Counted from the first letter of the stretch, positions 2,510-37,521 are shown. The stretch is DNA of 64,000 nucleotides from a bacterium (GCA_024226335.1 JAAELY010000266.1:9515-73514), one strand, 5' to 3'. Program-made: numbers and translations. Notes: generated by a model not told the origin, from the sequence alone.

Positions 2510-3670
2510 CTAGGGTTTTTCGATCTGATCGAGAAGCCAGTTGTGCATCTGCCAGAGTTGAGTCTCCAGGTGCGAGACGCGTCCGGGTTTTGCCAGGCGC
2601 GATTGCGCACCGGCCCAGCAGTAGCGGCCTCCGGCCATGTCTTGCTGGTGGACTGCGTCGAGCAGTGCTCGGATATCCTCGCCGACCTTCTCCGGATCGG
2701 GATGCTGATCGATGTTGGGGTGAACCAGCGGGATGTAGCGCAATCGATGGTGATCGTGGGAATCCGGAATCAACTGCAGGTAGGCCGTGTATCCAGGCAC
2801 CATGAAGAACATCGTGTACGGGAAGATCGTCACGAGCTTCAGCGAGTAGAGTTCGCGTTCGGAAAGTCCCGCGGGCGGCGGATAATCGCCGGGGATTGGA
2901 CTGCGGTCCTTGGTCGGATTCCAGTACAGGGAGTAGGGGCCGCGAGGGGGCTCGATCTCTGACATCGCACCCGGCATGAGATCTTCGATGATGTCCTGGT
3001 GCAATCCGATGTGGTGGTACGACTCGGAACCGGCTTCCACGCTCATCTTCCAGTTCCAGTCACAGTCGTAGTCGATCGGTTCCAGCATGCGCAGCCGCTC
3101 GAGTTCATATCCCTCGACCTCGGGGACCAGGGGGGCCAGTTGTGGGGCGAGGGGGGCCGCGTTGGTGTCCAGGTTCACGAAGATGAAGCCGCCCCAGAGT
3201 TCGGCGGGGAACTGAGGCAGGCTCCAGCGCTTCTTGTCGAAGTCCTGCGCCTGCTCCATGCCCGGTGCGCCTAGCATCTTGCCTTCCAGGTCGAACGACC
3301 ACAGGTGGAACGGGCACTGGAACGAATTGCGGTTGCCGCACGACTGGCTCTTGAAGGGAAACGTCGACTCTTCGTCGTGCCCGACCAGCAGCATCCAGCG
3401 ATGCGGGCAGATATTGGACAGTGCCCGGATCGTTCCACCCTGGTCGTGGACCAGGATCAGCGGTTCGCCGAAAAGGTCGATGTTGAAGTAGTCCCCGGGG
3501 TTCGCGATCTGCTCGGCGCGTCCCACCGCCAGCCAGCTGCGCCGGAACATGCGCTCCTTCTCGAGTTCGTAGAAATCGGGATCCGTGTAGCAACGAGCCG
3601 GTAGCAGCGAAGCGCGCTCGGGCTGTTCGCGGACTGCGGCGATTTCGGCGGCCGTCAGGATCTCACTCAT
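2510..3670 (-). CDS. Rieske [2Fe-2S] non-haem iron aromatic-ring-hydroxylating oxygenase, alpha subunit (no beta subunit nearby)
   Basis: Rieske ligands CPHR ... CPFH. Downstream catalytic-domain motifs (ESYHHIGLHQD). Start placed at MSEIL (ATG at 3670-3668), preceded by GGGAGAAG. No adjacent beta subunit or reductase gene. Confidence 0.75.
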   Translation of the reverse strand: MSEILTAAEIAAVREQPERASLLPARCYTDPDFYELEKERMFRRSWLAVGRAEQIANPGDYFNIDLFGEPLILVHDQGGTIRALSNICPHRWMLLVGHDEESTFPFKSQSCGNRNSFQCPFHLWSFDLEGKMLGAPGMEQAQDFDKKRWSLPQFPAELWGGFIFVNLDTNAAPLAPQLAPLVPEVEGYELERLRMLEPIDYDCDWNWKMSVEAGSESYHHIGLHQDIIEDLMPGAMSEIEPPRGPYSLYWNPTKDRSPIPGDYPPPAGLSERELYSLKLVTIFPYTMFFMVPGYTAYLQLIPDSHDHHRLRYIPLVHPNIDQHPDPEKVGEDIRALLDAVHQQDMAGGRYCWAGAQSRLAKPGRVSHLETQLWQMHNWLLDQIEKP

Positions 3671-3799
3671 GGCTTCTCCCTTGCTGTTCGAGGTAGGAGT
3701 CTGGGCTTCAGCTTCAGGATGAACGGAACGGGAGCGCGCGACCATGGGAGAACCGGACAGTTAATGGTCATTTTCGGCCAGTTCTGATATCGTGATCCC

Positions 3800-18573: not shown

Positions 18574-19638
18574 TTAGCAGCAGCTGGGTCCTTCGTTGCT
18601 TTCGTCGGTATACGCGTCGTGAAAATGGCCGCGATCGACGAACACTTCCCGTTCGGCGGCCAGGGCGAGTGTGCGCTGAACATCGATGATGTGCGGACCG
18701 TCTCGGAGCACGGACAGACGCGCGCACTGGCCTTCGACCAGGCTTCGGGAACGGTCTCCGTCGAACGCCAGTACTGCGGGACCGTGCGCTGTGATGGCTT
18801 CGCCCAGTTCGAGTGACTGTGAATGGCGGACCCGAGCAGTTCGGTACAGACCCGGCGAGATCGGGACCAGTAGATCTCGACCTTCGCTTTCTGGATCACC
18901 ACACTCGACCAACACGCCGAAGTCGTCGTCGAAGCCGCAGGGGTGCAGGAGTCCGCCGATCGGCGATACACCCACCGCTCCGGGTTCAGCGCGCGCCAGG
19001 ACGATTTGTTGCATCCTGGCGGGGTCAAAAGGCAAGAAGCTCCCGAGTCGATCACCGACGAGGACGACTGCGTCAATCAACGCCAGGTCATCGTCCTCGC
19101 CATCGATCTGTACGTGGACGCGTTTCGCTCGGCGCGAAACTTCTTCCAGCGCGACATTGCCAGAGGCGACCAGTCCAGCGGCGGCGCCAGCAGTGGTTGC
19201 CTCGCACATCATCGGAAACACGTTGTTGGTTCCGGTCGACAGCGGGACCATGGGTGCGTCGGGCCACGCCTGAGTCACGACACGATGCGTGCCGTCGCCG
19301 CCCAGAACCAGTAATGCGCCACAGTCTGCTGCGCGCATGGCATGGACCGCTCGGACTGTGTCAGCGGCTTCGAGCCGCGCATCGACGTCGAGCACCTCGA
19401 TCTTGGCATCGAGTCTCAGATTCTCGACGGCGCTCGTCGAGATGCGAAACGGTTCCCGCAGCACGATCACGTGCTGCGCTCCTCCCGCGACCGCACCGAC
19501 GACTGCGCGTGCGACCTGATCTCGTTTGGCCTCGTGCGTGGTGGTACTGGCGCGCGCGACCATGCGTCGAACGTCGCGACCGGACAGTGGATTTGCCAGG
19601 ATCGCTACGGGTTTCGGCTGAGCAGGAGAGGATTTCAT
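18574..19638 (-). CDS. ATP-NAD kinase / diacylglycerol-kinase-fold family protein (AcoX-like)
   Basis: GGDGT motif (LVLGGDGTHR) and an NAD-kinase-like N-terminal region. Start at MKSSP (ATG at 19638). Confidence 0.6.
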   Translation of the reverse strand: MKSSPAQPKPVAILANPLSGRDVRRMVARASTTTHEAKRDQVARAVVGAVAGGAQHVIVLREPFRISTSAVENLRLDAKIEVLDVDARLEAADTVRAVHAMRAADCGALLVLGGDGTHRVVTQAWPDAPMVPLSTGTNNVFPMMCEATTAGAAAGLVASGNVALEEVSRRAKRVHVQIDGEDDDLALIDAVVLVGDRLGSFLPFDPARMQQIVLARAEPGAVGVSPIGGLLHPCGFDDDFGVLVECGDPESEGRDLLVPISPGLYRTARVRHSQSLELGEAITAHGPAVLAFDGDRSRSLVEGQCARLSVLRDGPHIIDVQRTLALAAEREVFVDRGHFHDAYTDESNEGPSCC

Positions 19639-19787
19639 TGCTGGGAGTCTACCGCGATCGGCCCGGCTGGCGTGGATTTCCCGGCCTGGGCAGTCTCTGC
19701 AGATTCCACCCGAAGTCCGTAGCTGCACCGGCTTCCAGGGCGAAGAATGGGCTATACAATCAGCGGGGACCTGCTCGCGAAGGGAGC

Positions 19788-20708
19788 ATGAGAATGAGTG
19801 CGGTCAATTCGATCCTGGTGGCTACGGACTTCTCGTCGCATGCGGAGTGCGCGCTCGAGCAGGCGACGAAGCTGGCCAGCTTGCTGGGCGCACGAGTCCA
19901 CCTGGTGTTCGCGGTTCACGTACCGGTGCAACCCCTGCTTCCCGAGATGGCCATCGTTCCGGCCGACATGATCGGACAGATGCGCGAGTTCGGGCGCACG
20001 AAGGCGCAAGAGACGGCCAACAAGATCGAGGCCGCCGGAGTCGAGTACGAAATCCATATCGAAGAAGGCGAGCCGTCGCGCGTCGTGCTCGATCTGGCGG
20101 AGCGCCTGAAAATCGACATGATCGCCGTGGGACGGCGCGGGCAGAGCGCACTGGAGCACGTGATCGTGGGAAGTGTCGCCGAGCGCCTACTTCGTTCGGC
20201 CGACTGTCCCGTACTGACCGCCGTTTCCGAAGGAGGCGAACTCTCGCTCGACGAGATTCTGGTGGCGACCGATCTCTCCGACGCAGCGATCGGCGCGCTT
20301 GGCGTCGCCCAGACGATTGCTGCTGCATCGCCGCCGACCCGGCTCTTGCTCGCATACGCCCACCCGCCCGGGATCCAGGCGGTGCGCTTTCTGGCGCAGA
20401 CCGACGAGCGGGTCTCGATCGGTACCGGTATTCCGATCCTCGACTCGCTTGCCGAAGATGTGGTCACCCGGGCTTCTGCCCTGCTCGATCCCGCGCGCAA
20501 CGGCGGGGTTCAATCCTACCTGGTCACCGGCGATGGCAAACCGGACACCTTGATTCTCGAAACCGCTGAGCAGCGCAATGTGAAGCTGATCGTCATGGGG
20601 ACGCACGGCCGCCGCGGTATCTCACATCTGGTCCTGGGAAGCGTGGCCGAGCGCGTTGTCCACGGCGCGAGTTGTTCGGTCATCACGGCTCGGATTCAGG
20701 GTTCGTGA
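19788..20708 (+). CDS. Tandem universal stress protein (two UspA domains)
   Basis: Two UspA modules, each ending in the ATP-binding G-x2-G-x9-G-S motif (VGRRGQSALEHVIVGSVAERLL and MGTHGRRGISHLVLGSVAERVV). Start at MRMS with AGGGAG upstream. The six-frame ORF extends much further 5' but that part overlaps the opposite-strand gene. Confidence 0.8.
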   Translation: MRMSAVNSILVATDFSSHAECALEQATKLASLLGARVHLVFAVHVPVQPLLPEMAIVPADMIGQMREFGRTKAQETANKIEAAGVEYEIHIEEGEPSRVVLDLAERLKIDMIAVGRRGQSALEHVIVGSVAERLLRSADCPVLTAVSEGGELSLDEILVATDLSDAAIGALGVAQTIAAASPPTRLLLAYAHPPGIQAVRFLAQTDERVSIGTGIPILDSLAEDVVTRASALLDPARNGGVQSYLVTGDGKPDTLILETAEQRNVKLIVMGTHGRRGISHLVLGSVAERVVHGASCSVITARIQGS

Positions 20709-24259: not shown

Positions 24260-25047
24260 GCGTCCGGGTCTCCTTGAAGGCAGGGAGACTAGCGCCCCGG
24301 GCGCCCGCTCCCCACCCCGGCCGTAGGCGGACTCAGGGGCTCGAAGCCCCGATATCGTCCTCCCTCAACGATGATGGCCGCGATCGGCGCAGAAGTGCGA
24401 TCTGGCACCCGGAAAACGAGCAAGTCCTGAACCCGGTTTCCGTGACCGGGTGGGGCCGTTCCTCGTTGCGACAGCTACTTCCCTGGGAAAACCGTGCGAC
24501 GTAACTCGAATCGATTGCGACCCGGGTAAACTGTCTGCCAAGCTGTGGGGTCAGATAAATGGGACAAACGCGCGAGCACACACGGTGTAATCTCAAACTT
24601 GGGGAATTCGAGTCAACGGAAATAGATACGAGCTACGGCCCGATTCTCCTCCACCGAGAAGGTGGGTTCCATCACAGACATCCTATGATCGAGAGGCTTT
24701 CATCTGAAATGACAGAGAGATACTTTCCGTTCTGGCGAGAAGCTCCGCTGATGATCCGCACTGACCGGGAATTCATGTCCCGAGACCGAGGGCCAGAGGC
24801 CTCCGCGAGGGTGCGATTGCTGGACAATGTGGGCGTCGAGAGGGGGGGGGTGGCCGCGAATCGAGGCTTCCATCCCACGGCAGCTTCCGCCGGAACCTCC
24901 CGATTCAGATCATGGAGGTGGATGTCGGGGTTCTTCGCAAATCTGCCACAGGTTCTTTGGGTCGCCTCCGATGGGAACCGGACAATGAAACCCAATTTTG
25001 AATCCGACGATCCCGGTCTGCCGTACACAGGAGAATCGCATTCCGTC
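24260..25047 (+). promoter_or_regulatory. Long (about 790 bp) AT-richer non-coding leader/promoter region upstream of the 25.0-35.8 kb operon and divergent from clpP
   Basis: Local GC is visibly lower than the flanks. No convincing ORF: the in-frame extension of the downstream gene is acidic and not signal-peptide compatible. Contains an 8-bp palindrome AATCGATT at about 24509 and a G9 tract. Confidence 0.3.
24842..24850. repeat. Poly-G homopolymer (G9)
   Basis: A directly read run of nine G at about 200 bp upstream of the first operon gene, in an otherwise mixed-sequence leader. Confidence 0.9.
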
Positions 25048-26253
25048 ATGCACTCTCCGGTCTCTCGCGTTTTCTCGAGAACATGCGCGACACTACTGCT
25101 CGCTTTAGCTGTGCTGGCCTCGCCACCCTATGTTCGGGCGGGGGAGCCGGAAGACGATCCGCTGCTCGAACTCGGTACTGAAGACGGTCATGGCGGCGAA
25201 GACTTCATGAAGTACGACCGCGATCAGATCAAAAAGCAGGTCAAGACCTTCATCCCGCCGCTGCTGAGCCCGGCCTTTACCCAACATGCTTTCGTTCTTC
25301 CTCCTGGTCTGTTCAGGATGGGCCTTTCGCATCGGATCGTGTCGATCGATGGCAACGACTTCTTCAAGAACGGCAACACCAATCGAGCCGTGTTTGCAAA
25401 CTCGGAAGTCGACCGGGAACTGACCGATCTCGACATCTTCTACGGATTCGATCTGAATCGCGAGTACCTGCACGCCTTCACGGTGAGACTCAACATCCCG
25501 TACAAGAACTCGCGGGTTCGCGGCTACGTCCATCCCGGGGGGCTACAGGCACTCAACGCGCACAACACCGCAAGTACCCAGGAACTCGGAGATATCGGAC
25601 TCTTCCTCAAGAAGAAGCTCATGGATCAGGGCAACGGCCCGATCGGAATCGCAGCCGTCGGCGCGGTCTTCTTCCCGACCGGGGACAACGACGAAAGGTA
25701 CGGAAACGACGGGACGATCATGATGCAGATGCCACCGGCTGCACCGACCAGTTCTATCTTCGGGCGGTTTTCCGACGACGGTCGTCTCCCATCCACGCTA
25801 CAGCCCGGCACGGGGAGTTTCAGCTACCTGGGTGGGATGTTCCTGACCCGACAGTTTGATTGGCGTGGGCTTTCGTTGCGCGGCGCCTTTCACCTCGGTG
25901 CGACCTACCGGCTCGTGTTCAAAGAAGACGGGGTCGATCCCGGCGATACCGCGACGTATTTTGCGTCGCTGGTCATGCCGATCCGAAAGGATTTCTTGTC
26001 CGCGGATCTGACCTGCATCGTGTTCGACCACGAAGACGACAGCTACAGCGGGACGTTCATGGATCCGGTCCTGGGCGTGATTCCGCGACCGGACTTTTCC
26101 GGAGGAACGACTGGCTTCATCGCGCCGTCGTTGATTTTCAGTCCCGATCCGCAGTTCCGCGTGACGCTTTCAGCGCTCCTGCGGGTCAAGGATCCGGATC
26201 TCGGACCTGCGCCCCAGTCGATTATCCGACTCGGGTTTTCGGCGACGTTCTGA
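25048..26253 (+). CDS. Outer-membrane beta-barrel protein (MetA-pathway/transporter-like porin family candidate)
   Basis: Signal peptide (MHSPVSRVFSRTCATLLLALAVLASPPYVRA). Alternating amphipathic beta-strand pattern throughout. C-terminal aromatic residue (..LGFSATF) typical of OM barrels. Start at ATG 25048. Confidence 0.5.
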   Translation: MHSPVSRVFSRTCATLLLALAVLASPPYVRAGEPEDDPLLELGTEDGHGGEDFMKYDRDQIKKQVKTFIPPLLSPAFTQHAFVLPPGLFRMGLSHRIVSIDGNDFFKNGNTNRAVFANSEVDRELTDLDIFYGFDLNREYLHAFTVRLNIPYKNSRVRGYVHPGGLQALNAHNTASTQELGDIGLFLKKKLMDQGNGPIGIAAVGAVFFPTGDNDERYGNDGTIMMQMPPAAPTSSIFGRFSDDGRLPSTLQPGTGSFSYLGGMFLTRQFDWRGLSLRGAFHLGATYRLVFKEDGVDPGDTATYFASLVMPIRKDFLSADLTCIVFDHEDDSYSGTFMDPVLGVIPRPDFSGGTTGFIAPSLIFSPDPQFRVTLSALLRVKDPDLGPAPQSIIRLGFSATF

Positions 26254-26315
26254 CAGATGGAAAAGAAATACTCGATCGCGTTGGAAATGCTTCGACCTGA
26301 TTGTGCGGGGAAAAC

Positions 26316-29153
26316 ATGATGCGGATGTCAAAGAGAATCCTGGTCGGTTGCGTCATCGCCTCGATGAGCCTCTGGTGGATGGCGCCCATGGGAACCGCGA
26401 AGGTTCTCATGCACACGCCGGATGGTCGTGTCCTGCACCTCAAGGGAGGCACGGCTCAACCGGACCTGAGCCGGTTCCGGTCCGCATTGCAGAGCAAGGT
26501 CATGGATCGCCGCTTCCACACGAACGAGAACGGCTATCTCGCCAATGAGGCCTACTCCACCAGTCAGACCGGCTTCAATGACATGGTCAAGGCCGGAATT
26601 CCGGTGGCGTACAAGCCGGAGTTCCACTGGATCTCACACCAGGAAATGTACTGGAACGCGCGCTTCCTGTTGCAGTGGGCCGGCGCGGCCTCCCGACTCG
26701 GGATCTCCATGGTGCACGGCCCCTACTGGACATTGAAGGCCGATGAATTCTCGAGGCGGAACCGCTTTGGGCGAGATCGCGGTGAACGCTCTCTGTCCAA
26801 CAAGGACATCCTCATTGGCATCTACCTGCCGCTCTACTACTCCCGCACCGGCTTTCCGCGTGTGTTCGATTCGGCCTTTCCTACTTATCTGCAGTACGCA
26901 TCCGGCGACCCCCGCCTGGTGGGGCCGGTCGAGGTCGGGGACGACTTCGACGACCCGCAGAGCAGTAAGAAGGGCGGCTGGGGTGTGCCTCGCTATTTCC
27001 TCGATTGGACGAACCTGCGCTGGAATCACGACCGGATGGACACCACTATCCACATGGGAGGGCTGGGACAGTTCCTGAAGAGAAGGGCGCAGTGGACCGG
27101 CTATATGTTCCACAGCACGCACGTGGAGCAATCACCCTCGGACCCCGACGGCGATGAGATCTCCCTGCTCGGGAACGACGCGGAAGAAGGCTTCCGCGGA
27201 ACCGTTCTGGCCACCATGGCAATCAATACCATGCTCGAGGCCAAGGCCGCATTCTTCGCTGATGCGAAGGGGAAGAAACTCGGCGGGCTCAATCCCTTCA
27301 AGTACGATCCTGAAAACGGCCTGCGATACCTTCCGCATACCATCAAGCCGAACATTCTCTGGGTAGGGGATCTTCCCGAGCGGCTCTGGTCGGTCAGCAT
27401 TGCCGACAACTCCAGTCAGCTCTGGGACCAGGCGTCCTGGATCTGGGCAACCACCGAGTACAGTCACTTCGTCCTCTGGTACAACGATCAGGTCTTCACC
27501 GACAATCCGCCCGCGGATGGTGGCATCCTCGAAAAGCGGGTTGGACTCGTCTCGCGCGGGATGGCCAATGTCATCATCAAGAACCTCAGGGCCATGCACA
27601 CCCGCAAGGGCATCCTCGTTTCGGAGTGGACTCCCACAGGAGGGACCGGAAAGGTCCTGAGCATGCGGGATGCTGCCATGACCATGTCGGCCTTGAAGGA
27701 GTACGACGATCGTCACGAGTTCCTCGATGAGGATGAGGATCTCCGAGAAGACGCAGTCACCATGCTGATGGATCTCGCGGATTTCCTGGTGAAGGTCCAG
27801 GCGAAGGACGGATCGTTCTACGAGAAATACGACGTGACCAGCGGCGAGGGGCTCGGTGAGAACACTGTGTCCGCTCCCAACTGGGCCGGTATCAAGGCGC
27901 TGGTCGTGGCCTGGCAGAAGACGGAAGAGGAGGCTTACGCCCGCGCTGCGCGAAAGACCTTCAACCTGATGAATAGTAAGTACTGGGTTGAAAAACACGG
28001 CCTCTATCGCACGAGACTCGGCGACGACACGGTCACCCTCACTCCGTACGACATCGCGATCACACTGGGCGCTTTGCGCGAGACGCTCTTTGCGACACCT
28101 CTTCATCTGGTCGAACCACAACTCGACAGGATCACCCGTTGGTGGGTTCAGACCATGGATTCGAGTGGCATGCAGCAGACCGAGGACAATCGCACGGGTG
28201 AACTCGCCTTCGGCACGGCCGGGATGGACGAAGATGCGGACGGGATTCCCTTCGTCGCCGGCGGTTATGGGGAATACGGCACAGCACCGGTGACCGCGGC
28301 AAAGGTCGCGGTCAACATCGGCGGGTCCGAGAACTCCGCGTTCGCGGCTCTTGATGGAGACGCCTACAACGCCCAGAAGTACGCCGAGGTCAAATTCGCC
28401 TACGTCACCCAGTCTCGCAAGGAACAAGACGAGCTCCTGCTGCCTCTGGACATCCCTTCCGAGGGGCTGATCGAGCGTCCTCCGATGCAGAAGTTCAACG
28501 GAACCACCATCCCACTGGCCTCCAGCAAGCCGGTCGAACGCGGGCTGGGAATCAAACTCGGTCTTACAGGCAAGCAGATCTTCGAGATCAACTGCGTCCT
28601 GTGCCACGGTTTTTCGGGAGAGGGGATTACCGGTCTCTCGCTAGAGAAGGACGTGATGACGTTCTCACACGAAGAGATGTTCAAGGTCCCGAACGAGGGC
28701 CGGCACGAGAAACTCATGCCTCCGTGGGGTGTCGGGAACAAAGACAGTTTCGGTGGTCCGCTGAGTGAAGAAGAGATCCACCTCATCGTCAACTACGTGC
28801 AGAGTGACGAGTTTCGCGAGAAGTTCCAGGCCCATCAGGATGCTCTTCACGCCAAGGGCGATCCTCCGAAGGATCCTTTCGAGTACCTCTCCCGGCAATA
28901 CCAGAAGGGCACTTTGGAAAGCGCGACCGCTGACGATATTCGCCGCATCTCCCAGGCTCAGTGCAGGGCGAGTGATTGCATTCCGGAATCCCACAAGGTG
29001 TTCCGCCGGCTCCTGGCCGAGTCGCAGGGGAAGCAATCTCCGCGACTGGCCGATGCGGCTTCGGAGGAAGCGAAGGACCGTCCACAACCTTCTGCGGGGA
29101 GTGAATCCAGTCAGGCGCCGCCCGACAAGACAACAATCCTTACACGGCCATGA
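26316..29153 (+). CDS. Large secreted protein of unknown function with C-terminal monohaem cytochrome c domain
   Basis: Signal peptide (MSKRILVGCVIASMSLWWMAPMGTA). About 780 aa with no motif I recognise, then a class-I cytochrome c module (CVLCHGFSGEG ... LMPPWG). Start is ambiguous among ATGs at 26316, 26319 and 26325. The stop overlaps the next gene (ATGA). Confidence 0.6.
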   Translation: MMRMSKRILVGCVIASMSLWWMAPMGTAKVLMHTPDGRVLHLKGGTAQPDLSRFRSALQSKVMDRRFHTNENGYLANEAYSTSQTGFNDMVKAGIPVAYKPEFHWISHQEMYWNARFLLQWAGAASRLGISMVHGPYWTLKADEFSRRNRFGRDRGERSLSNKDILIGIYLPLYYSRTGFPRVFDSAFPTYLQYASGDPRLVGPVEVGDDFDDPQSSKKGGWGVPRYFLDWTNLRWNHDRMDTTIHMGGLGQFLKRRAQWTGYMFHSTHVEQSPSDPDGDEISLLGNDAEEGFRGTVLATMAINTMLEAKAAFFADAKGKKLGGLNPFKYDPENGLRYLPHTIKPNILWVGDLPERLWSVSIADNSSQLWDQASWIWATTEYSHFVLWYNDQVFTDNPPADGGILEKRVGLVSRGMANVIIKNLRAMHTRKGILVSEWTPTGGTGKVLSMRDAAMTMSALKEYDDRHEFLDEDEDLREDAVTMLMDLADFLVKVQAKDGSFYEKYDVTSGEGLGENTVSAPNWAGIKALVVAWQKTEEEAYARAARKTFNLMNSKYWVEKHGLYRTRLGDDTVTLTPYDIAITLGALRETLFATPLHLVEPQLDRITRWWVQTMDSSGMQQTEDNRTGELAFGTAGMDEDADGIPFVAGGYGEYGTAPVTAAKVAVNIGGSENSAFAALDGDAYNAQKYAEVKFAYVTQSRKEQDELLLPLDIPSEGLIERPPMQKFNGTTIPLASSKPVERGLGIKLGLTGKQIFEINCVLCHGFSGEGITGLSLEKDVMTFSHEEMFKVPNEGRHEKLMPPWGVGNKDSFGGPLSEEEIHLIVNYVQSDEFREKFQAHQDALHAKGDPPKDPFEYLSRQYQKGTLESATADDIRRISQAQCRASDCIPESHKVFRRLLAESQGKQSPRLADAASEEAKDRPQPSAGSESSQAPPDKTTILTRP

Positions 29154-30019
29154 CAGGAATAGATGTGACGATGGCAGAACCTCAAAACTCAGAAATGCTC
29201 TCCGAAAATCCGATTCAGCGCCTCGGTGCGCTCGTGTTGGTGCTCTTGCTCGTGCTGCCGATCACTGCTCACGCGGCCGGTTACAAGGAAACCCGGGTAG
29301 AAAACGGCGGGAGCATCACCGGCAAGCTGAGTTTCTCCGGTGAACTCCCGGCCGACGCCGTCGAAATGATCGCGGTCAACAAGAACCCGGAAGTCTGCGG
29401 AGAAGGCTATCGCGAGGTCGTCTGGGTGGACGTCGAGAACGGCGCGTTGCGCGGTGCCTTCGTCTATCTGCACAAGATCAAGAAAGGCAAGGCCTGGAGC
29501 CCACCAGACGGTGGCAAGTACATGATCAATCAGAAGGGCTGCCGTTTTCGACCTTGGGCCCAGGTCGTTCGCCAGGGCGATATCCATATCAAACACAGCG
29601 ACCAGGGTGTGCAACACAACATCAATATGGTCGAACTGATCGGGGTCGACAAAGGGCGAGCGGTCGAGAGGCCGCTGATCAATCGCAATCAGCCCGATCC
29701 CGGTGAAGCCATCGAGCAGATCAAGACGGTTCGCGCGCCTCATATCGCCATGAACTGCCAGGTTCACAACTTCATGTTCGGTTTCATGATGGCTCCTAAG
29801 AGTCCGTACGCCGTGGCGGTTGAAGAGGATGGCAGTTACGTCCTCGACAACGTGCCCGCGGGCAAATACACGCTCAAATCGTGGCATCCCCGGCTGGGAG
29901 TCCAGAAGAAGAAAATCACCGTTCCCGCGAACGGAGAGGTGGTCGCCGACTTCGAGTACACAAAAGACTCGGCTTCGAAGAAGCGAAGGCGACCCAGAAA
30001 GACCAAGGCAGAGAAATGA
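29150..30019 (+). CDS. Secreted protein with carboxypeptidase-regulatory-like/Ig-like beta-sandwich (function unknown)
   Basis: Signal peptide (LGALVLVLLLVLPITAHA). C-terminal SYVLDNVPAGKYTLKSWHP pattern resembles CarboxypepD_reg beta-sandwiches. Lys/Arg-rich tail. Translationally coupled on both sides. Confidence 0.45.
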   Translation: MTGIDVTMAEPQNSEMLSENPIQRLGALVLVLLLVLPITAHAAGYKETRVENGGSITGKLSFSGELPADAVEMIAVNKNPEVCGEGYREVVWVDVENGALRGAFVYLHKIKKGKAWSPPDGGKYMINQKGCRFRPWAQVVRQGDIHIKHSDQGVQHNINMVELIGVDKGRAVERPLINRNQPDPGEAIEQIKTVRAPHIAMNCQVHNFMFGFMMAPKSPYAVAVEEDGSYVLDNVPAGKYTLKSWHPRLGVQKKKITVPANGEVVADFEYTKDSASKKRRRPRKTKAEK

Positions 30020-31239
30020 CCGAAGAACACGGAGAACGAATCGTGATCACATCAGCACGGAGATTTGCTAAACGAATTCAGCTCGCGATGGCCTGTGCCG
30101 CGACTGCGTTGATGGTTCTCGCTGGCGCTATTGCAGTGGGAACGACGGAGACGGCCCGAGCCGAATCGGCGGATGAAGCGGGCGCATATCCGGCGATCGG
30201 CCCCTTGCCGACCCGAGATGCCCCGAAGGCCTCACTGGTCGAGATGGGTCGGCGCCTGTTCTTCGATCCGCGAATTTCCGGGGATGCCGGTCAGAGCTGC
30301 GCGACCTGTCACGATCCCGCGCAGGGATTCACTCGACAGACCGATGTCGAAGGCAAACCCATGCTCCTGTCCGACGCGTATCCGGGCATTCTCTACTTCC
30401 GCAATACACCGACATTGATCAATACCGCTTTTAAGGCGGACTTTGCCAACGTTGGTTGGGCCTGGGACGGTCGCATGGGTGCCAACCTGAACGATGTCGT
30501 TCGAGATCAGCTGACCGAGAGCATGATCATGAATATGGACATGCGCCTGATGCACGAGCGCATGAAGCAGGACCCGGTCTACGTAGGCATGTGCAAGGAG
30601 AACTTCGGCGGCGAGTGTAATTCGAGCGCCGGTCGCAAGGCTCTGGTCGCATTCATGGAATCCTTGGTGTCGAAGGACGCTCCCTTCGATAGCGGAACCG
30701 TTTCCGAGGCGGCCGGGCGCGGACGAGTTCTCTTCGAGGGCAAGGCGGACTGCATCCGCTGTCACAACGGTTCCTACTTCTCCGACGGTGAGGCGCATGA
30801 TACCGGCGTTTCCGAGAACCTGGATATCTTCCGAGATCCGTTGCGGCATGTCGGTCTGCGTGCCGTGTACAGCAATCACGGTGTGCCCAAGACGGATATG
30901 TGGCGGCGAGACGTCGGCTATTTCCTGGTGAGCAAGAACTACGGAGACGTGGGCAGTTTTATTACTCCGACGTTGCGGGAGCTCAAGTACACGGCTCCCT
31001 ATATGCACAACGGTGTGATCGGCACGCTGAATGAGGTCGTGGAGTTCTACGACCAGGGCGGCGGGCACGACGATCCACTGGCGAATGAGCTGAAACCTCT
31101 CGGACTTAGTACGGAGGAGAAGAGTGATCTCGTCGCCTTCCTCGAGAGTCTTTCCAGCGCCACTCCGATCGCTGTCGAGCTGGTGGAGATCCCCGAAACC
31201 TACGAGCCGATCGACGAATGGCTCGGCGTCCACAACTGA
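30016..31239 (+). CDS. Dihaem cytochrome c peroxidase (CCP/MauG family), copy 1
   Basis: Two haem motifs (CATCHDP and CIRCHNGSYF). Conserved CCP regions (FFDPRISGD, TPTLRELKYTAPYMHNG). The ATG overlaps the upstream stop (ATGA). Confidence 0.8.
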   Translation: MTEEHGERIVITSARRFAKRIQLAMACAATALMVLAGAIAVGTTETARAESADEAGAYPAIGPLPTRDAPKASLVEMGRRLFFDPRISGDAGQSCATCHDPAQGFTRQTDVEGKPMLLSDAYPGILYFRNTPTLINTAFKADFANVGWAWDGRMGANLNDVVRDQLTESMIMNMDMRLMHERMKQDPVYVGMCKENFGGECNSSAGRKALVAFMESLVSKDAPFDSGTVSEAAGRGRVLFEGKADCIRCHNGSYFSDGEAHDTGVSENLDIFRDPLRHVGLRAVYSNHGVPKTDMWRRDVGYFLVSKNYGDVGSFITPTLRELKYTAPYMHNGVIGTLNEVVEFYDQGGGHDDPLANELKPLGLSTEEKSDLVAFLESLSSATPIAVELVEIPETYEPIDEWLGVHN

Positions 31240-31282
31240 TTTCAGGCGTCCCGTACGACACCGCAGTTTGAAGGTAAACAAA

Positions 31283-32521
31283 ATGAAGTCGCCAAACAGA
31301 ACGCAGGGCTTGTTGATCGCGCTCTTGCTCGTCGTCGCTCCTGTGGCATTCGCCCAGGAAGACCCCGATTTCGATCCGCCTCTGGCACCACTTCCGCCAC
31401 CACCGGCGCCTCCGGACAACCCGATCACGCCCGCGAAGACGGAGCTCGGCAAACTCCTGTTCTTCGACACACGCTTGACGGGTGACGCGAGCTTGAGTTG
31501 TGGCGACTGTCACGATCCGAAGAAGGGTTGGGGCTCCAGCGGACCGATCTCGCGCGGTTATCCCGGTGCGGTCCACTGGCGCAATTCCCATACTGCCGTG
31601 AACTCCGCCTACCTGGGGAAACTCTTCTGGCAGGGAAGCGCCAAGAGCCTCGAAGGCCAGGCTCCGACCGCCAATCGCGGTGCGGTGGCGGGAAATGGCG
31701 AGCGGGACGTGATGCAGAGTCGGCTTCGCCAGACTCCCTACTACATCAAGGCATTCAAGGAAGTCTTCGGCACCGAGCGACCCAATCTCGGCGACGCCTG
31801 GCAGGCTGTCGCGACGTTCGAACGCGCGGCGTTGTCTCAGCTCGATACGCCACTGGACCAGTATCTCGCGGGCGACGAGTCGGCTCTTTCCGAAGAGGCG
31901 ATCGAGGGACTCGAGTTGTTCCGCGGCAAGGCCGGTTGCATCGAGTGCCACAACGGCCCTCTGCTCACGGATGAGAAATACTACAACCTGGGTCTACCGC
32001 GGCCCATCGAGTGGGAATCGATCGGTCTGAACACGATCACCTTCCGCTGGGAGACCTACGCCAAGGGTGCTCCCGAAAAGAGCTATCGAGAGTGGAAGGA
32101 CGACGCGGGGCTGTACTTCACGACCAAGCGCAAGGATGACATCGGGAAGTTCCGCACTCAGCCACTCCGGTATCTCCTGTACACCCCTCCGTACGGGCAC
32201 GCCGGGCAGTTCTACACACTGGAGGAGGTCGTCGACTTTTACGACGAAGGTGGAGGCGAGAACGAGTTCACCGATGGCACACACGGTTTCAATACGAAGA
32301 CGCCGATCCTGAAGCCTCTCAATCTCAGCGATGAAGAGAAAGAGGTGTTGGTGATCTTCCTGGAAGAAATCAGCGGTGAGGAAATCACGATGGCCGTTCC
32401 GAAGATCCCAATGTACGAGGCGATGCCCGATGTGGCTGAACTGACGCAAGCTTCGGCCAAGCGAATCGGCCTCGAGACGTATCTGTCCTCTCTTGCTGGA
32501 AAGGAGGAGGTGAGCAAATGA
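31283..32521 (+). CDS. Dihaem cytochrome c peroxidase (CCP/MauG family), copy 2, with Pro-rich N-terminal linker
   Basis: Signal peptide. PLAPLPPPPAPPDNP linker. Haem motifs CGDCHDP and CIECHNGPLLT. Conserved C-terminal PPYGHAGQFYTLEEVVDFY. Confidence 0.8.
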   Translation: MKSPNRTQGLLIALLLVVAPVAFAQEDPDFDPPLAPLPPPPAPPDNPITPAKTELGKLLFFDTRLTGDASLSCGDCHDPKKGWGSSGPISRGYPGAVHWRNSHTAVNSAYLGKLFWQGSAKSLEGQAPTANRGAVAGNGERDVMQSRLRQTPYYIKAFKEVFGTERPNLGDAWQAVATFERAALSQLDTPLDQYLAGDESALSEEAIEGLELFRGKAGCIECHNGPLLTDEKYYNLGLPRPIEWESIGLNTITFRWETYAKGAPEKSYREWKDDAGLYFTTKRKDDIGKFRTQPLRYLLYTPPYGHAGQFYTLEEVVDFYDEGGGENEFTDGTHGFNTKTPILKPLNLSDEEKEVLVIFLEEISGEEITMAVPKIPMYEAMPDVAELTQASAKRIGLETYLSSLAGKEEVSK

Positions 32522-33072
32522 CCGAGCAGAAGAAATCCTCGTCGTGTCGGGGTGGTTGCATTACCAGACGTGAGGCTCTGCTAGGAGGCGCTGGAGTGAT
32601 CACCAGCACCGTCTTGCTCAGCACTCTTCCCGGATGCGAGAAAAGCGAACCGGTGCCCGTTCAGGTGTCCCGTCATCCGGGCAAGCTGATCGGCAAGCTG
32701 AGTGAGTTGAAACAGAATCAATCCGTATCTTTTTCATTTCCGGAAGGCGCCGCCAACGCGACGGGCATGTTGATCAAGATGGGTGTTCAGGCCGGAGGAG
32801 GCATCGGACCGGAACAGGACATCGTCGCTTTCAATACGACCTGTCCTCACATGGGCGGACAACTCTACGGGCGCTACATACCCGAGGAGCAGGCTCTGGG
32901 CGCCTGTCCCCATCACCTTTCATCGTTCGACCTGACTCGCCACGGCATGGTCATCGCCGGCCATGCCACCGAGAGCTTGCCGCAAGTGCTGCTTGAACTC
33001 GACGGAGACGACATCTACGCCGTGGGCCTGATTGGTCTGATCTACGGCCACACTTCAAATCCCGAAGCCTGA
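32518..33072 (+). CDS. Rieske [2Fe-2S] small subunit with twin-arginine signal (AioB/IdrB-like)
   Basis: TAT motif TRREALLGGAG. Rieske boxes CPHMGG and CPHHLS. Strong AAGGAGGAGG Shine-Dalgarno. ATGA overlap with the upstream peroxidase gene. Confidence 0.75.
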   Translation: MTEQKKSSSCRGGCITRREALLGGAGVITSTVLLSTLPGCEKSEPVPVQVSRHPGKLIGKLSELKQNQSVSFSFPEGAANATGMLIKMGVQAGGGIGPEQDIVAFNTTCPHMGGQLYGRYIPEEQALGACPHHLSSFDLTRHGMVIAGHATESLPQVLLELDGDDIYAVGLIGLIYGHTSNPEA

Positions 33073-33088
33073 TCGAGGAATAGGAATC

Positions 33089-35782
33089 ATGTCTGCAAAA
33101 GATTCAAAGCCATTCTACAAGTCGTCGGAGCAGGTTCCGCTTCCGCCAAAAGATGCCGAGGTCCTCACCACGTGTTGCGACTACTGCATCGTGGCGTGTG
33201 GACAGAAGGTCTACCGCTGGCCCGCCGACGGTCCCAACGGGGGCATGAAGAAGAGCGAAAATGCGCTCAACCGAGATTACCCATTGGCTCCGATGGTGGG
33301 CAACTGGCTTGGACCGAACCAGTTCACCCAGGCGATGCACAACGGGAAGCTCCACAATATTGCCGTCGTACCGGACGGCGACGCGACCGTCGTCAATGTG
33401 GGCGGAAATCACAGTATTCGCGGTGGTTGCATTGCCCAGAAGGTGTACAGCGAGAAGAAGCCGACTCGGGATCGCTTGAAGCACCCGATGATTCGCATCG
33501 CCGGGAAACTGACACCGGTGAGCTGGGACCTGGCCCTGGACGTCGCCGCCGAGGTCTCCAAGCACGTCATCAAGCACCACGGCGAAGACGCCTGGGCCCT
33601 GAAGTACTTCAGCTATCAGTTCTACGAGAACACGTACGCGCTCACGCGCTTGGCGTTCAAGAGCATCAATACGATGGCGGTCGCCCAGCACGACCACCCG
33701 GCGATCGTGGATGCGACTCCCGGCTGGACGGATATCGGCTACGACAGTTTCCCGTCGTCGTACGAGGACTTCCTGCACGCCGATTGCGTCGTGATCTCCG
33801 GAGTGGATCCGTTCGAGACCAAGTCGGTGTTGTGGAGCGAGTGGATTTCTCGGGGCATGATCGAGAACAAGACGAAACTCGTGATGATCAATCCCAGAAA
33901 GACGGTCGGCGTTGCCGCGGCCGAGAAGAACGGCGGTCTGCACCTGGATGTGAATCCCGGCTCCGATACCGTCGTACACATGGCGATCGAGCGTGTGATC
34001 CTGGAAAACGGTTGGGAGGACACCGAGTTCATCAAGAACTGGGTGAACAATTTCTGGGAGACCGATTCCGGTTTCGGTCAGGGAACCCGCAACACGCCCT
34101 GGCAGTGGCGAACCACCTGGGGGAAATTCCAGGTCAAGGACTTCGCCGACTGGAAGAAGTGGATTCTGGAGCAGGAAGAGTCCAAGCCCGATGTCGCTGC
34201 GGCGATTGCCGGGATCGACCCTCAGAAGATCTACAAGGCCGCAGAGATGATGGCCAAGCCGAAAGCTGATGGCGAACGGCCCAAGACCATGATCGCGATC
34301 GAAAAGGGCAACTACTGGTCCAATAACTATCTGAACACTGTTTCGATCGGTACGCTAGGCGTGATTCTCGGATGCAGTGGTCGCAAGGGACGTGGCATCA
34401 CTCGTCTGGGTGGCCACCAGCGCGGTGGGCGGAGCGGGGGCAAGTATCCGACCTGGAAGTCTCCCTACAAGATGCCCGGTCGGCGCCATCATCGGATCGA
34501 CCTGGACCGCTGGGTCGAAGATGGCCACGTGCGCTTTGCCTACGTCGTCGGTACGACGTGGATCCAGTCCATGGCCGGTTCGGGTGATCTGAAGCAGACT
34601 TTCCAAGCGAAGACTCGCGACAATCCGCATCAGATTCAGTCAGCGGATAAGCAGCACATCATCGATACGCTCAAGAAACGAGTCGAGTCGGGCGGGATGG
34701 TGGTCGCCCACCAGGATCTCTATCTCATCGAACCCATCGGTAGTGAATTTGCCGACATCGTGCTTCCTGCTTCGGGTTGGGGCGAGTCGGATTTCACGCG
34801 CTGCAACGGAGAACGTCGCATTCGCCTGTACTCCGGCTTCTACGATCCGCCGGGAGAAGCCTTGCCCGACTGGAAGATCGTTTCCATGTTCGCGAAGAAG
34901 ATGGGATTCGAGGGCTACGACTGGAAGGAGTCCAATGACGTTTTCGAGGAGACCTGTCGCTTCAGTCGAGGCGGTCGAACCGATTACAACGTCTTGCGCA
35001 CGGTCGCCAAACGGAAGGGCATGAAGACCCACGACCTGCTTCGGACCTACGGTACGACTGGATTGCAGTGTCCGCTGCTCCTCGATGGAGAGAAGATCAT
35101 CGAGACCAAACGACTGCACGATTTCGAACGCGATGATCTACCTGCCACGGGGCCAGCGGGGGTGAGCGTTCAGCGCAAGAACCTGATGGCCTTCAAGACG
35201 CACACCGGCAAGCTGAACCTGTTGAAGTCACCCTGGAATATCTGGTCCGATTTCTACGAGTTCATGCGACCCAAAGACGATGAGCTGTGGGTAACCAACG
35301 GGCGCGTCAACGAGATCTGGCAATCGGGTTTCGACGATACAGAGCGTCGTCCGTACATTCAGCAGCGCTGGCCGGACAACTTCCTCGAGATCCATGAGGA
35401 AGATGCGCGCGCCCGCGGCATCGAAACCGGTGACCGCGTCGAGATCGAGTCGAAACGCGTTCCCGTCCAAAAGGATTTCAATCTGGGCGTCAAGAGCGAC
35501 GATATGTGGTTCTCTGGTCTGATGAAGCGCAACCACATCAAGATCGTCACCGGAAAATTCGAAGCGGTGGCTATCATCACTCCGGTCGTGAAAAAGGGAG
35601 TGGTCTTTACGAACTTCCTGGACAAGAACCAACCGGCCAATAGCATCACGCCGAGGGTTCCGGATCCGCTCAGCATGAACTACCGCTTCAAGCTCTCATC
35701 GGGAACGGTCAAGAAGATCGGTGAATCCCCTTACAAGGACACCTACGCCCAGATGAGCCTCAAGAGGCGGAATATCGTTTAG
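33089..35782 (+). CDS. Molybdopterin (bis-MGD) oxidoreductase large subunit of the arsenite-oxidase/iodate-reductase (AioA/IdrA) clade
   Basis: 897 aa with no signal peptide of its own, consistent with TAT hitch-hiking on the Rieske partner. N-terminal Cx2Cx3C (TCCDYCIVACG) [3Fe-4S] motif characteristic of AioA-type enzymes. Molybdopterin oxidoreductase and C-terminal MGD-binding-like regions. Confidence 0.75.
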   Translation: MSAKDSKPFYKSSEQVPLPPKDAEVLTTCCDYCIVACGQKVYRWPADGPNGGMKKSENALNRDYPLAPMVGNWLGPNQFTQAMHNGKLHNIAVVPDGDATVVNVGGNHSIRGGCIAQKVYSEKKPTRDRLKHPMIRIAGKLTPVSWDLALDVAAEVSKHVIKHHGEDAWALKYFSYQFYENTYALTRLAFKSINTMAVAQHDHPAIVDATPGWTDIGYDSFPSSYEDFLHADCVVISGVDPFETKSVLWSEWISRGMIENKTKLVMINPRKTVGVAAAEKNGGLHLDVNPGSDTVVHMAIERVILENGWEDTEFIKNWVNNFWETDSGFGQGTRNTPWQWRTTWGKFQVKDFADWKKWILEQEESKPDVAAAIAGIDPQKIYKAAEMMAKPKADGERPKTMIAIEKGNYWSNNYLNTVSIGTLGVILGCSGRKGRGITRLGGHQRGGRSGGKYPTWKSPYKMPGRRHHRIDLDRWVEDGHVRFAYVVGTTWIQSMAGSGDLKQTFQAKTRDNPHQIQSADKQHIIDTLKKRVESGGMVVAHQDLYLIEPIGSEFADIVLPASGWGESDFTRCNGERRIRLYSGFYDPPGEALPDWKIVSMFAKKMGFEGYDWKESNDVFEETCRFSRGGRTDYNVLRTVAKRKGMKTHDLLRTYGTTGLQCPLLLDGEKIIETKRLHDFERDDLPATGPAGVSVQRKNLMAFKTHTGKLNLLKSPWNIWSDFYEFMRPKDDELWVTNGRVNEIWQSGFDDTERRPYIQQRWPDNFLEIHEEDARARGIETGDRVEIESKRVPVQKDFNLGVKSDDMWFSGLMKRNHIKIVTGKFEAVAIITPVVKKGVVFTNFLDKNQPANSITPRVPDPLSMNYRFKLSSGTVKKIGESPYKDTYAQMSLKRRNIV

Positions 35783-35828: not shown

Positions 35829-36668
35829 TCACTTCGCTCCTTCACGCTCGTACAGGATGGGATTCAACGGGCTCGCGATCGGATCGCCGACCGCGCAACC
35901 CGGTGCCCAGCGCTTCTGATCGTATTCCTGGAACGCGTCGGCCGGTTCCGCGACGCGCATGTCTCGATCCATATAGATCATCGTCATGGCGGCGCGGGTT
36001 TCTTCGGTCTGGTTCGGGTCCGCCCGGTGGAACGTGAAGCCGTAGTGGAAGCTCACGTCTCCTAGTTCGTAGGGCTCGGCGACCACGCGGATTCCGGCCG
36101 CCGAAAGCGAAGCGGCGATCTCACTCTCTCCGCGCTCACTGATCCCGAAGCGCCGCCCGTGATCCGTTTCCTGGGTTCCCACTGCAAAGGCCAGGGCTCC
36201 CGCTTCGACGGACGTCGCCTGCAGCGGAATCCAGGCGGTGATGCTCAGTCCGCTCGACATCGGCCAGAAGAACTGATCGACGTGCCATGGGGTCGCTCCA
36301 CCGCCGGTTTCCTTGTAGAGCGCCTGGTCGTGCCACATGCGCACGCCTTCGCATCCCAGTAGTTCGTTGGCGATGCGCGCGCAGCGCAGGTTCAGACTGA
36401 AGGGACGGATGGCTTCGTGGCGCTCCCAGAGGTTCGTGATCTGGATGAAGGCCTGCGCGTAGGCGTTTCGCTCTTCCAGCGGGAGCACGTTCGGATCTTC
36501 CGCCGAAACGATGCTCGTGATCTGCTCTGCGAAAAACTCCAGAAGCTCCTTCGAGAAGACCCCGGGAAGCCGGATGAAACCATCGCTGCGATAAGCCGCG
36601 ATCTGCTCGGCGGAAAGAGAGTAGGGACGATCGAGTTCTTCCCGGAAACGCGCGGGTAGATCCTGCAA
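35829..36668 (-). CDS. Phytanoyl-CoA dioxygenase (PhyH) family Fe(II)/2-oxoglutarate oxygenase
   Basis: PhyH-family pattern with an HxD...H facial triad context (PWHVDQFFWP ... SFHYGFTFH). Confidence 0.7.
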   Translation of the reverse strand: MQDLPARFREELDRPYSLSAEQIAAYRSDGFIRLPGVFSKELLEFFAEQITSIVSAEDPNVLPLEERNAYAQAFIQITNLWERHEAIRPFSLNLRCARIANELLGCEGVRMWHDQALYKETGGGATPWHVDQFFWPMSSGLSITAWIPLQATSVEAGALAFAVGTQETDHGRRFGISERGESEIAASLSAAGIRVVAEPYELGDVSFHYGFTFHRADPNQTEETRAAMTMIYMDRDMRVAEPADAFQEYDQKRWAPGCAVGDPIASPLNPILYEREGAK

Positions 36669-36672
36669 CGCC

Positions 36673-37521
36673 CTAGGCTCCGCTCACCGGAGTCTCATCT
36701 TTGGGAGGTGGGGCGCCTCCGACGAGGATCGGGTACTGCCGATCGGGAGCATCGCAGCGGGTCCGCACGGCCTCGTCGCCAGTTCCCGTAATCACATGGG
36801 CACCGTCGGGTGCGAACTGGACGACGTAGGCGTTGCGCGGGCGGTCCGTCGTCCTATTCGGTCCGGTTTTGTGCGGCGTCAGCGATGAGAAGACGACCAC
36901 CCCGCCGGCACGGACCGGAGCGGCAATCATTTCATACTTGCTCTCGTCTCCCACGCAATCGAAACCGTATTCAGTCTGCTCATGGGCCCAGGTGCCGTCC
37001 CTGTGGTAACCCGGAATAACGACCGGACAGCCGTTCTGCTCGTCGGCATCCGTCAACGCTACCCAGCAGGTCAGATACTGCTGCGGATCCACGTAGGTGT
37101 AGCCATTGTCCTGATGCCACGGAAACTCTTCGGCCATCTGCGGTTTCTTGTACACCGTCTGGTCCCAGTAAAGACGAACGTCTTGGCCGACCAGGTCGTG
37201 CACCAGGTCGCTGAAAAAGCCGCTACGCGTCAACTCCCTGGCCTTCGGCGAGCGGGTCACCATATGTGGCGTGAACGTGATTTCCCCAGAGCGTGCGATG
37301 AACATCTTTCCGCCGAAGCGCTCGTCGAGCATCTCTTCGAACTTGCGCTCGAGTGGGTCGAGTTCGCCGCGCAGAGCCTCGATCGTGGCTGCGTCGAAGA
37401 CGTCTTCGAAGACCAGGAATCCCTTTTCGTCGAATTGCCTGGCCTGCTCCTCGTTGATCAGGCGGAAGGGTCCCTTGTGGTTCTCCCAATGGAAACTCTT
37501 GTTGAGTTCGTGCTTGATCAC
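36673..37521 (-). CDS. Phytanoyl-CoA dioxygenase (PhyH) family protein, second paralog
   Basis: FPWHQDNGY ... LTPHKTGPN. Sits 4 nt upstream of the first PhyH gene on the same strand. Confidence 0.7.
   Translation of the reverse strand: MIKHELNKSFHWENHKGPFRLINEEQARQFDEKGFLVFEDVFDAATIEALRGELDPLERKFEEMLDERFGGKMFIARSGEITFTPHMVTRSPKARELTRSGFFSDLVHDLVGQDVRLYWDQTVYKKPQMAEEFPWHQDNGYTYVDPQQYLTCWVALTDADEQNGCPVVIPGYHRDGTWAHEQTEYGFDCVGDESKYEMIAAPVRAGGVVVFSSLTPHKTGPNRTTDRPRNAYVVQFAPDGAHVITGTGDEAVRTRCDAPDRQYPILVGGAPPPKDETPVSGA

Follow-up and report, generated by a model that had tools for sequence, protein, structure and literature searches.

The iodate reductase Idr was discovered and characterised in Pseudomonas sp. 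SCT, according to the account that PMC8692401 gives with reference to Yamazaki 2020, and experimental evidence for Idr now covers only SCT, IR-12, NCP973, DN11, TC-10, R. azorensis and two expressed gene clusters from marine oxygen minimum zones (OMZs) (PMC8692401, PMC13455634, PMC11445184). Reyes-Umana et al. delimited its molybdenum (Mo) subunit, IdrA, from the arsenite oxidase subunit AioA by the conserved synteny of the idr cluster (PMC8692401), and the gene order idrP2-idrP1-idrB-idrA has been described as characteristic (PMC10989891). One of the five isolated dissimilatory iodate reducers is NCP973 (PMC13455634). In OMZ waters, 'aioA-like' genes expressed in the Eastern Pacific are now considered to be IdrA (PMC8692401), and for a new OMZ clade of IdrA, from SAR324 and Alphaproteobacteria, two clusters raised iodate reduction in E. 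coli (PMC13455634). Here we analysed a 64,000-nucleotide stretch of bacterial DNA (GCA_024226335.1 JAAELY010000266.1:9515-73514, hereafter the window, with positions counted from its first letter) that carries a Rieske-Mo enzyme next to two peroxidase genes. Our comparisons lead us to propose, with a probability of roughly 0.8, that it holds, in the canonical idrP2-idrP1-idrB-idrA order, the genes for an iodate reductase that belongs to the Idr family, is of the dissimilatory type and works in the periplasm.

The similarity of the Mo subunit carries much of this argument. The window IdrA is 53% identical (69% positives, residues 6-897) to a protein of strain SCT (P0362, UniProt A0A391NTR7, 892 amino acids [aa]), which we reached by a search with the Azonexus protein and which UniProt names 'Iodate reductase subunit IdrA', and it is 53.8% identical over 100% of its length to a plasmid gene of Azonexus hydrophilus NCP973 (tblastn against plasmids). 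Identity to AioA proteins (NT-26, Thermus HB8, Burkholderia and others) is 26-31%, and the best matches among solved structures are AioA, at only about 255 bits. In neighbour-joining trees computed from trimmed MAFFT alignments with Kimura distances, rooted on E. coli FdhF and including NapA, the window, SCT and Azonexus proteins fall in an IdrA family that is monophyletic, with AioA outside, in 100/100 bootstraps (107 sequences) and in 200/200 bootstraps (92 sequences), and a long stem lies between the IdrA family and AioA. A sequence-only reading of the window had described the architecture correctly and had named the right candidates, IdrA, AioA or a third lineage, while leaving the substrate assignment open. 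Sequence comparison settles that question in favour of IdrA, through monophyly with characterised IdrA, the outcome which that reading had itself named as removing a new clade, and the agreeing synteny and active-site substitutions. As judged from these comparisons, the window IdrA is a member of the described IdrAB family with two peroxidases, and is neither an arsenite oxidase nor a new lineage. The suggestion of a new clade thus finds no support at the family level, given the 200/200 monophyly; what stands of it is a distinct and equally well supported (200/200) subclade inside the IdrA family, not a separate family.

The genes discussed here, listed from idrA upstream, are as follows.

idrA, 33089..35782, + strand: 897 aa, catalytic subunit for a bis(molybdopterin guanine dinucleotide) (bis-MGD) cofactor, [3Fe-4S] domain at the N-terminus, without a signal peptide

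idrB, 32518..33072, + strand: 184 aa, Rieske [2Fe-2S] subunit with the twin-arginine signal CITRREALL

idrP1, 31283..32521, + strand: di-haem cytochrome c peroxidase (CCP), PF03150, haem motifs CGDCH and CIECH

idrP2, 30016..31239, + strand: di-haem cytochrome c peroxidase, PF03150, haem motifs CATCH and CIRCH, likely start ATG at 30016

o289, 29150..30019, + strand: secreted protein of 289 aa, predicted to hold a type-1 cupredoxin domain in its middle part and a transthyretin/CarboxypepD_reg-like domain at its C-terminus

o950, 26301..29153, + strand: secreted protein of about 945-950 aa, with an uncharacterised N-terminal domain (about 650 aa) and, C-terminally, a mono-haem cytochrome c (CVLCH)

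o564, 24559..26253, + strand: 564 aa, open reading frame (ORF) upstream of the operon, with a signal-like hydrophobic segment and the C-terminal sequence ...GFSATF

The likely start of idrP1 is the ATG at 31283, within a mechanical ORF that runs from 31124. ATGA start/stop overlaps join o950 to o289 (at 29150), o289 to idrP2 (at 30016) and idrP1 to idrB (at 32518), and the gap between idrB and idrA is only 16 nt and holds a GAGGA-type ribosome-binding site. Because of these overlaps and this short gap, the region from 26301 to 35782 reads as one operon made up of o950, o289, idrP2, idrP1, idrB and idrA.

Synteny agrees with the phylogeny. We scanned species-representative genomes, found relatives in more than 583 and kept the best 80 loci (54-80% identity); in all of these best 80, wherever enough upstream sequence is available, the order is CCP-CCP-Rieske-Mo, as in the conserved idrP2-idrP1-idrB-idrA cluster of the window. 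The correspondence extends to the individual genes: when related idr loci are compared, idrP1 always matches their second CCP gene best and idrP2 their first, and every one of these loci has a Rieske gene in the place of idrB, with 43-56% identity to it. Peroxidase genes were present in none of the six AioA or AioA-like loci examined, several of which carry aioR or ars genes. The sequence-only reading had taken the peroxidase pair as a pointer to Idr-like chemistry. In comparison with the characterised systems, the loci of SCT, IR-12 and NCP973 share with the window the four genes in the same order, the twin-arginine translocation (TAT) signal on IdrB only and the 3Fe-4S motif, and the IdrA proteins of SCT and NCP973 further share the length of about 890-900 aa, 53-54% identity and the signature residues HD... 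and RxGGHQR. In Azonexus NCP973, two CCP genes precede those for the small and the large (892 aa) subunit, and a small cytochrome c gene and moaA follow; the window locus has neither of these two downstream genes and instead carries, upstream in the operon, the cupredoxin-like gene and the 950-aa cytochrome c fusion.

The domains and motifs of the predicted proteins fit an enzyme of this type. The 897-aa Mo subunit matches the Pfam families PF18465 (Rieske_3, the 3Fe-4S domain), PF00384 and PF01568. The [3Fe-4S] motif of AioA is Cys-x2-Cys-x3-Cys-x70-Ser (PMC3758308), and C30-x2-C33-x3-C37 together with S109 of the window IdrA align with these ligands, so that the earlier description of the cluster motif as AioA-like holds. 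IdrB has a Pfam Rieske match, scores 106.7 bits against TIGR02694 and presents its Rieske ligands as CPH...CPHH. Its twin-arginine CITRREALL lies near the N-terminus at a position that is conserved among IdrB and AioB relatives, and the N-terminus of IdrA is without a twin-arginine motif, which confirms the arrangement recognised from the sequence, a Rieske partner with a TAT signal (TRREALL) and a Mo subunit without one. Directly 5' of the idrB/idrA pair, IdrP1 and IdrP2 are CCP_MauG di-haem peroxidases with two CxxCH motifs each, and hydrophobic N-termini follow their likely starts and would fit Sec-type signals. The predicted export signals, TAT on IdrB only and Sec-type on IdrP1 and IdrP2, are those expected of a periplasmic system. 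An 'LPGC' lipobox-like motif ends the signal region of IdrB (residues 36-40); its Cys occurs in 0 of 12 aligned relatives and is probably without significance.

The length of the Mo subunit had been taken as a hint of insertions and novelty. The window protein is indeed longer than AioA (829-861 aa), and three inserted segments of 9, 20 and 31 aa (window residues 322-330, 681-700 and 791-821) account for the gap between IdrA and AioA. The hint of novelty, however, does not survive, because IdrA relatives span 888-920 aa and the SCT and Azonexus proteins both have 892 aa; 897 aa is, by this comparison, a trait of the IdrA family and no sign of novelty.

The active site departs from that of AioA in a manner typical of IdrA. 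In AioA, the second sphere of the Mo site comprises, in NT-26 numbering, H199, N200, R201, E207, R447 and H451 (PMC3758308). Three of these six residues are kept in the window IdrA (H201, R439 and H443), while N200, R201 and E207 are replaced by D202, H203 and A209, respectively, and the HQE of AioA becomes HQR445; A205 was noted along with these residues. The substitutions recur across the family: among 99 members, the H199-equivalent column is H in 99 and the N200-equivalent column D in 97, the R201-equivalent is never R (T49, H23, N17, others), the E207-equivalent is S79/A9/D9, and the column of the HQE Glu holds R in 98. The same columns in the 120 closest database clusters give a matching picture, and SCT IdrA reads HD-K...D and HQR. 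The comparison with AioA and IdrA that the earlier reading had proposed, of substrate-binding residues, thus came out against an arsenite site, with only half of the AioA second sphere kept and IdrA-typical substitutions in the rest. Within the IdrA family, the window protein differs from characterised IdrA in having His for Lys at the position of AioA-Arg201 and Ala for Ser at the Mo-ligand-equivalent position. The latter column, which holds the Cys or Sec ligand in Nap and Fdh, is Ala in AioA and in the window and S/A/T/G across the IdrA family, which fits the published conclusion that the Mo of IdrA, as in AioA, is without a protein ligand (PMC10100899). The HQE-to-HQR change was considered as an absolute marker of IdrA and had to be softened, since the Azonexus IdrA (L001, 8001-10679) carries HQC, the sole such case at an otherwise near-invariant HQR position that adjoins the active-site His.

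The public record would suggest a different function. An identical protein from a metagenome-assembled genome (MAG) of a bacterium (P0001) is named 'arsenate reductase (azurin) large subunit', and both TIGR02693 and TIGR02694 cut-offs are passed. An arsenite oxidase AioAB that passes electrons from As(III) via the Rieske subunit to a cupredoxin or cytochrome c would also be compatible with the subunit architecture, the 3Fe-4S motif and the TAT arrangement, and a neighbouring cupredoxin would suit Aio, whose electron acceptor is azurin. We nevertheless regard this as very unlikely. The window protein scores 396.6 bits against TIGR02693, close to SCT IdrA (422.9) and Azonexus IdrA (425.6) and far from AioA of NT-26, Thermus and Burkholderia (1279-1500), and its match covers profile positions 2-747 of 806, which is not the full-length, high-scoring match of an AioA. 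The cut-off of this model, at 359 bits, admits proteins of 397-426 bits, and for that reason IdrA, characterised IdrA included, is systematically named 'arsenate reductase (azurin) large subunit' in public records; no iodate-reductase model was among the NCBIfam matches. Identity of 26-31% to AioA, the position of AioA outside the clade in 200/200 bootstraps, and the replacement of N200, R201, E207 and the HQE Glu all speak against arsenite oxidation. So does the neighbourhood, where two peroxidase genes stand in place of the aio regulatory and ars resistance genes, as no aioXSR, ars or phosphate-type gene turned up in a scan that took in the operon, the flanks next to it and the window's larger ORFs, though not every ORF. 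AioAB (A. faecalis and NT-26; PDB 1g8k and 4aay) is best regarded as a sister family that shares with the window enzyme the Mo-bisMGD and 3Fe-4S cofactors, the TAT-exported Rieske subunit, the lack of a conserved protein Mo ligand and the conserved His199, Arg447 and His451, and that differs in the sequence features given above, namely the low identity, the three insertions, N200D, R201H, E207A and HQE to HQR, and in the direction of electron flow, which runs the opposite way in Idr. The label 'arsenate reductase (azurin)' is then wrong for proteins of about 890-900 aa encoded beside two peroxidase genes, and such mislabelling skews the inference of arsenic versus iodine cycling from metagenomes, as it did with the 'aioA-like' genes of OMZs.

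Within the IdrA family, the window IdrA belongs to a subclade, recovered in 200/200 bootstraps, whose members share 64% identity or more with it. The nearest of them (79-87%) are encoded in three MAGs, one each of Planctomycetes (GCA_024226535.1), Phycisphaerales (OFTM74) and Lentisphaeria (ETNP2_MAG_64), followed by a group at 68-74% made up of proteins of alpha- and gammaproteobacterial MAGs from Tara and OMZ samples and of ART90575.1. This last protein, from the eastern tropical North Pacific (ETNP), is called 'AioA-like large subunit [uncultured proteobacterium]' and falls inside the window subclade, as do the alphaproteobacterial OMZ/Tara proteins of clusters P0006 and P0008, which are 73-74% identical to the window. 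The SAR324 IdrA (P0119 cluster, 56%) belongs to a neighbouring clade with marine alphaproteobacteria and vibrios. The hosts of the subclade, members of the Planctomycetes-Verrucomicrobia-Chlamydiae (PVC) group (Planctomycetes, Lentisphaeria) and OMZ alpha- and gammaproteobacteria, thus differ from the Rhodocyclales and Pseudomonas that carry the SCT, IR-12 and NCP973 systems, and a Planctomycetes-type host would be added to the predicted iodate reducers. The Lentisphaeria MAG ETNP2_MAG_64 (GCA_030754995.1) carries two idr clusters, on JASLZG010000049.1 (L101) and JASLZG010000068.1 (L032), whose IdrAs are 79% and 56% identical to the window IdrA, respectively, and belong to different IdrA subclades.

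Several points weigh against our assignment to iodate and should be read together. The iodate function rests, for this sequence, on family membership and bracketing and not on a tested, near-identical enzyme, and the window subclade is only 53-55% identical to characterised IdrAs. Moreover, the position equivalent to Arg201 is His in 23 of 23 members of the window subclade, and it is Lys in SCT and Azonexus and Thr in the SAR324 and marine alphaproteobacterial proteins. The trees are neighbour-joining and not maximum-likelihood trees; the two expressed OMZ clusters, Fu_MAG_99 and Arabian10_MAG_27, and Denitromonas IR-12 are outside them, and DN11 and TC-10 also lie outside the retained genome set. 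These observations leave some room for an Idr-family enzyme that has another physiological substrate, such as bromate, chlorate, selenate or an N-oxide, or that plays a mainly detoxifying role, and His203 together with the additional cupredoxin and cytochrome genes would then mark the shift. The full bootstrap support of so distant a subclade, its uniform His where other clades have Lys, Thr or Asn and its own accessory genes would agree with such a shift, and there is a report of Idr in aerobes whose iodate reduction is confined to O2-limited conditions (PMC11445184). On the other side, the idrP2P1BA unit is complete and the other family signature residues are kept, and the closest relatives come from OMZ water with documented iodate reduction and idrA expression (PMC8692401, PMC13455634). 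The Arg201-equivalent position itself seems tolerant, since it is K/T/H/N/Q across clades that include characterised or expressed members. On balance, we consider a different substrate or role rather unlikely.

More improbable still is the reading that the cluster, as binned from a metagenome, is a relic without function or a product of misassembly. The window apparently derives from a MAG, to judge by the label of P0001, and the contig collection holds no gene with exactly this product; yet all seven ORFs are intact, the cofactor ligands are conserved, the G+C content of the operon (0.58-0.60) lies close to that of its flanks (0.58-0.64), and three assemblies made independently (L004, L100 and L101) show this gene order too. 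An iodate reductase remains our preferred interpretation of the locus.

If the locus encodes such a reductase, its mode of action may be modelled on that of the family (PMC8692401, PMC10989891, PMC13455634). IdrA would fold in the cytoplasm with its bis-MGD and 3Fe-4S cofactors and would be exported piggy-back on IdrB through the TAT pathway. Electrons would pass from the quinol/bc1 level to a soluble periplasmic carrier and on through the Rieske and 3Fe-4S clusters to Mo, where IO3- would be reduced to HIO, with or without the formation of H2O2. HIO would then disproportionate to I- and IO3-, and IdrP1 and IdrP2 would clear H2O2 or other oxidants formed alongside. In this locus, a c-type cytochrome, as in the Denitromonas proposal, is probably not the sole carrier, which may be the co-translated o289, possibly together with the cytochrome c domain of o950.

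While the Mo enzyme belongs to a known family, o289 is the only new-looking element of the locus. The 563 homologs of o289 in the protein database are all unnamed or called 'carboxypeptidase regulatory-like', and Pfam gives only a weak match to its C-terminal beta-sandwich. An AlphaFold2 (AF2) model built from 40 homologs has a mean predicted local distance difference test (pLDDT) score of 87.6, and a Foldseek search with this model returned almost only pseudoazurin, amicyanin and plastocyanin, at a probability of 1.00. The model predicts an eight-strand Greek-key cupredoxin domain between two extra beta-sandwich domains, with His156 on strand 4 and with C203, at the end of strand 7, followed by H206 and M209 in the loop that leads to strand 8, at the spacing C-x2-H-x2-M. 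All four residues are invariant in the 40 homologs and in 26 locus-derived homologs. This ligand arrangement is that of canonical type-1 copper sites, and C-x2-H-x2-M is the spacing of amicyanin. The protein therefore shares with type-1 cupredoxins (amicyanin, pseudoazurin and plastocyanin) the predicted fold and the His/Cys/His/Met set, and differs from them in having no detectable sequence similarity and in that the domain is embedded in a larger protein.

The gene is closely tied to the idr cluster of this subclade. It lies directly 5' of idrP2 in 14 of 15 window-subclade loci, L014 being the exception. Outside the subclade, copies at 53-55% identity occur in L057 and L058, and among the other IdrA clades five loci (KSB1, Calditrichaceae, Latescibacterota, Lentisphaeria and Desulfobacterales) have a divergent copy (35-41%) immediately 5' of idrP2 and five more (Planctomycetota, Rickettsiales, Nitrospinaceae and two alphaproteobacterial) have one at another place in the locus; the Rhodocyclales, Pseudomonas, Vibrio and Roseobacter-type loci are without it. 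The OMZ alphaproteobacterial loci share with the window the cupredoxin-like gene 5' of idrP2 and differ in the genes that follow the cluster, which are of the HEAT-repeat, cytochrome c and cytochrome bd-like types, whereas the window and its three closest relatives add o950 and possibly o564. In one such alphaproteobacterial MAG (GCA_030745155.1, L090 9800-16691), idrA is followed by genes for a HEAT-repeat protein (721 aa), a cytochrome c, a Cyt_bd_oxida_I-like protein (729 aa) and two further cytochromes c.

Arsenite oxidases use azurin or cytochrome c as electron acceptors, and a cytochrome c551 has reportedly been proposed as the electron source of IdrAB in Denitromonas; these two precedents make a cupredoxin donor plausible, and we propose o289 as a candidate electron donor to IdrB by analogy with them. 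The conserved cupredoxin-like gene coupled to idrP2 in this marine low-oxygen subclade could thus be the missing donor of IdrAB, and if it is, iodate respiration would be tied to copper availability. Among the papers searched, none joins idrA with a cupredoxin. Some observations count against the donor role. No cupredoxin Pfam family matches o289 even at E = 10, and hhalign of the o289 family with amicyanin, for which an approximate sequence was used, gave a probability of 1.3%. We had also considered that the cupredoxin and a small downstream cytochrome c might be mutually exclusive; the counts across loci (11, 11, 10 and 43) do not agree with this, and that argument was dropped. Finally, o950 is only possibly part of the electron path, and for o289 and o950 alike we purely infer the role as donor.

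Less can be said about the two genes further upstream. In o950, Pfam recognises only the cytochrome c domain (PF13442 and PF00034, residues 756-835), and neither Pfam at E = 10 nor a PDB sequence search gave anything beyond that domain; a single-sequence AF2 model reached a pLDDT of only 32.6, too low for use. Its N-terminal domain (about residues 60-675) is a rare, Pfam-less family with 86 representatives at E <= 1e-10 among 1.84 billion, and distant relatives of this domain are secreted or cell-surface proteins with type IX secretion system (T9SS) tails, DUF11 or SdrD_B, with weak C5-epimerase-like hints. The form fused to cytochrome c was found only in idr operons of Planctomycetes, Phycisphaerales and Lentisphaeria, and three PVC-type relatives carry it at the same position with about 70% identity (L004 1856-, L100 3371-6118 and L101 1-2648). 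Upstream of o950, o564 gave no Pfam (to E = 10), NCBIfam or PDB sequence match, and its one homolog found, with 60% identity, occupies the corresponding position in L004; its C-terminal sequence recalls outer-membrane beta-barrels, and it may be an outer-membrane protein that is only uncertainly part of the operon. In the Planctomycetes locus L100, a Porin_5 gene follows idrA.

Taking these genes together, we tentatively suggest that Idr of the OMZ/PVC subclade is a five- or six-gene system in which o289, as a type-1 copper protein of three domains that had gone unrecognised, joined by o950 in Planctomycetes-type genomes, would form an electron module dedicated to IdrB, although we judge this somewhat less than an even chance. 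Were it true, marine iodate reduction in OMZs would depend on copper as well as on molybdenum.

Around the operon, consensus scans for promoters and terminators between 24000 and 36500 gave counts at or below shuffled expectation, and no sigma-54 two-component regulator is adjacent to it. On its 3' side, two adjacent genes for PhyH-family dioxygenases lie on the opposite strand (35829-37521, -). Further away, the window holds a fragment of a sulfite-oxidase-type molybdoenzyme at its edge (125-1030, +; Oxidored_molyb and Mo-co_dimer), the alpha subunit of a Rieske ring-hydroxylating oxygenase (2510-3745, -) and a cytochrome P450 (4926-6191, +). A large Usp-domain protein is encoded a few kilobases upstream of the idr operon (18813-20708, +), and a Usp-domain protein is also encoded beside the idr cluster of the alphaproteobacterial MAG (L090 1195-2865, -), which may be a coincidence.

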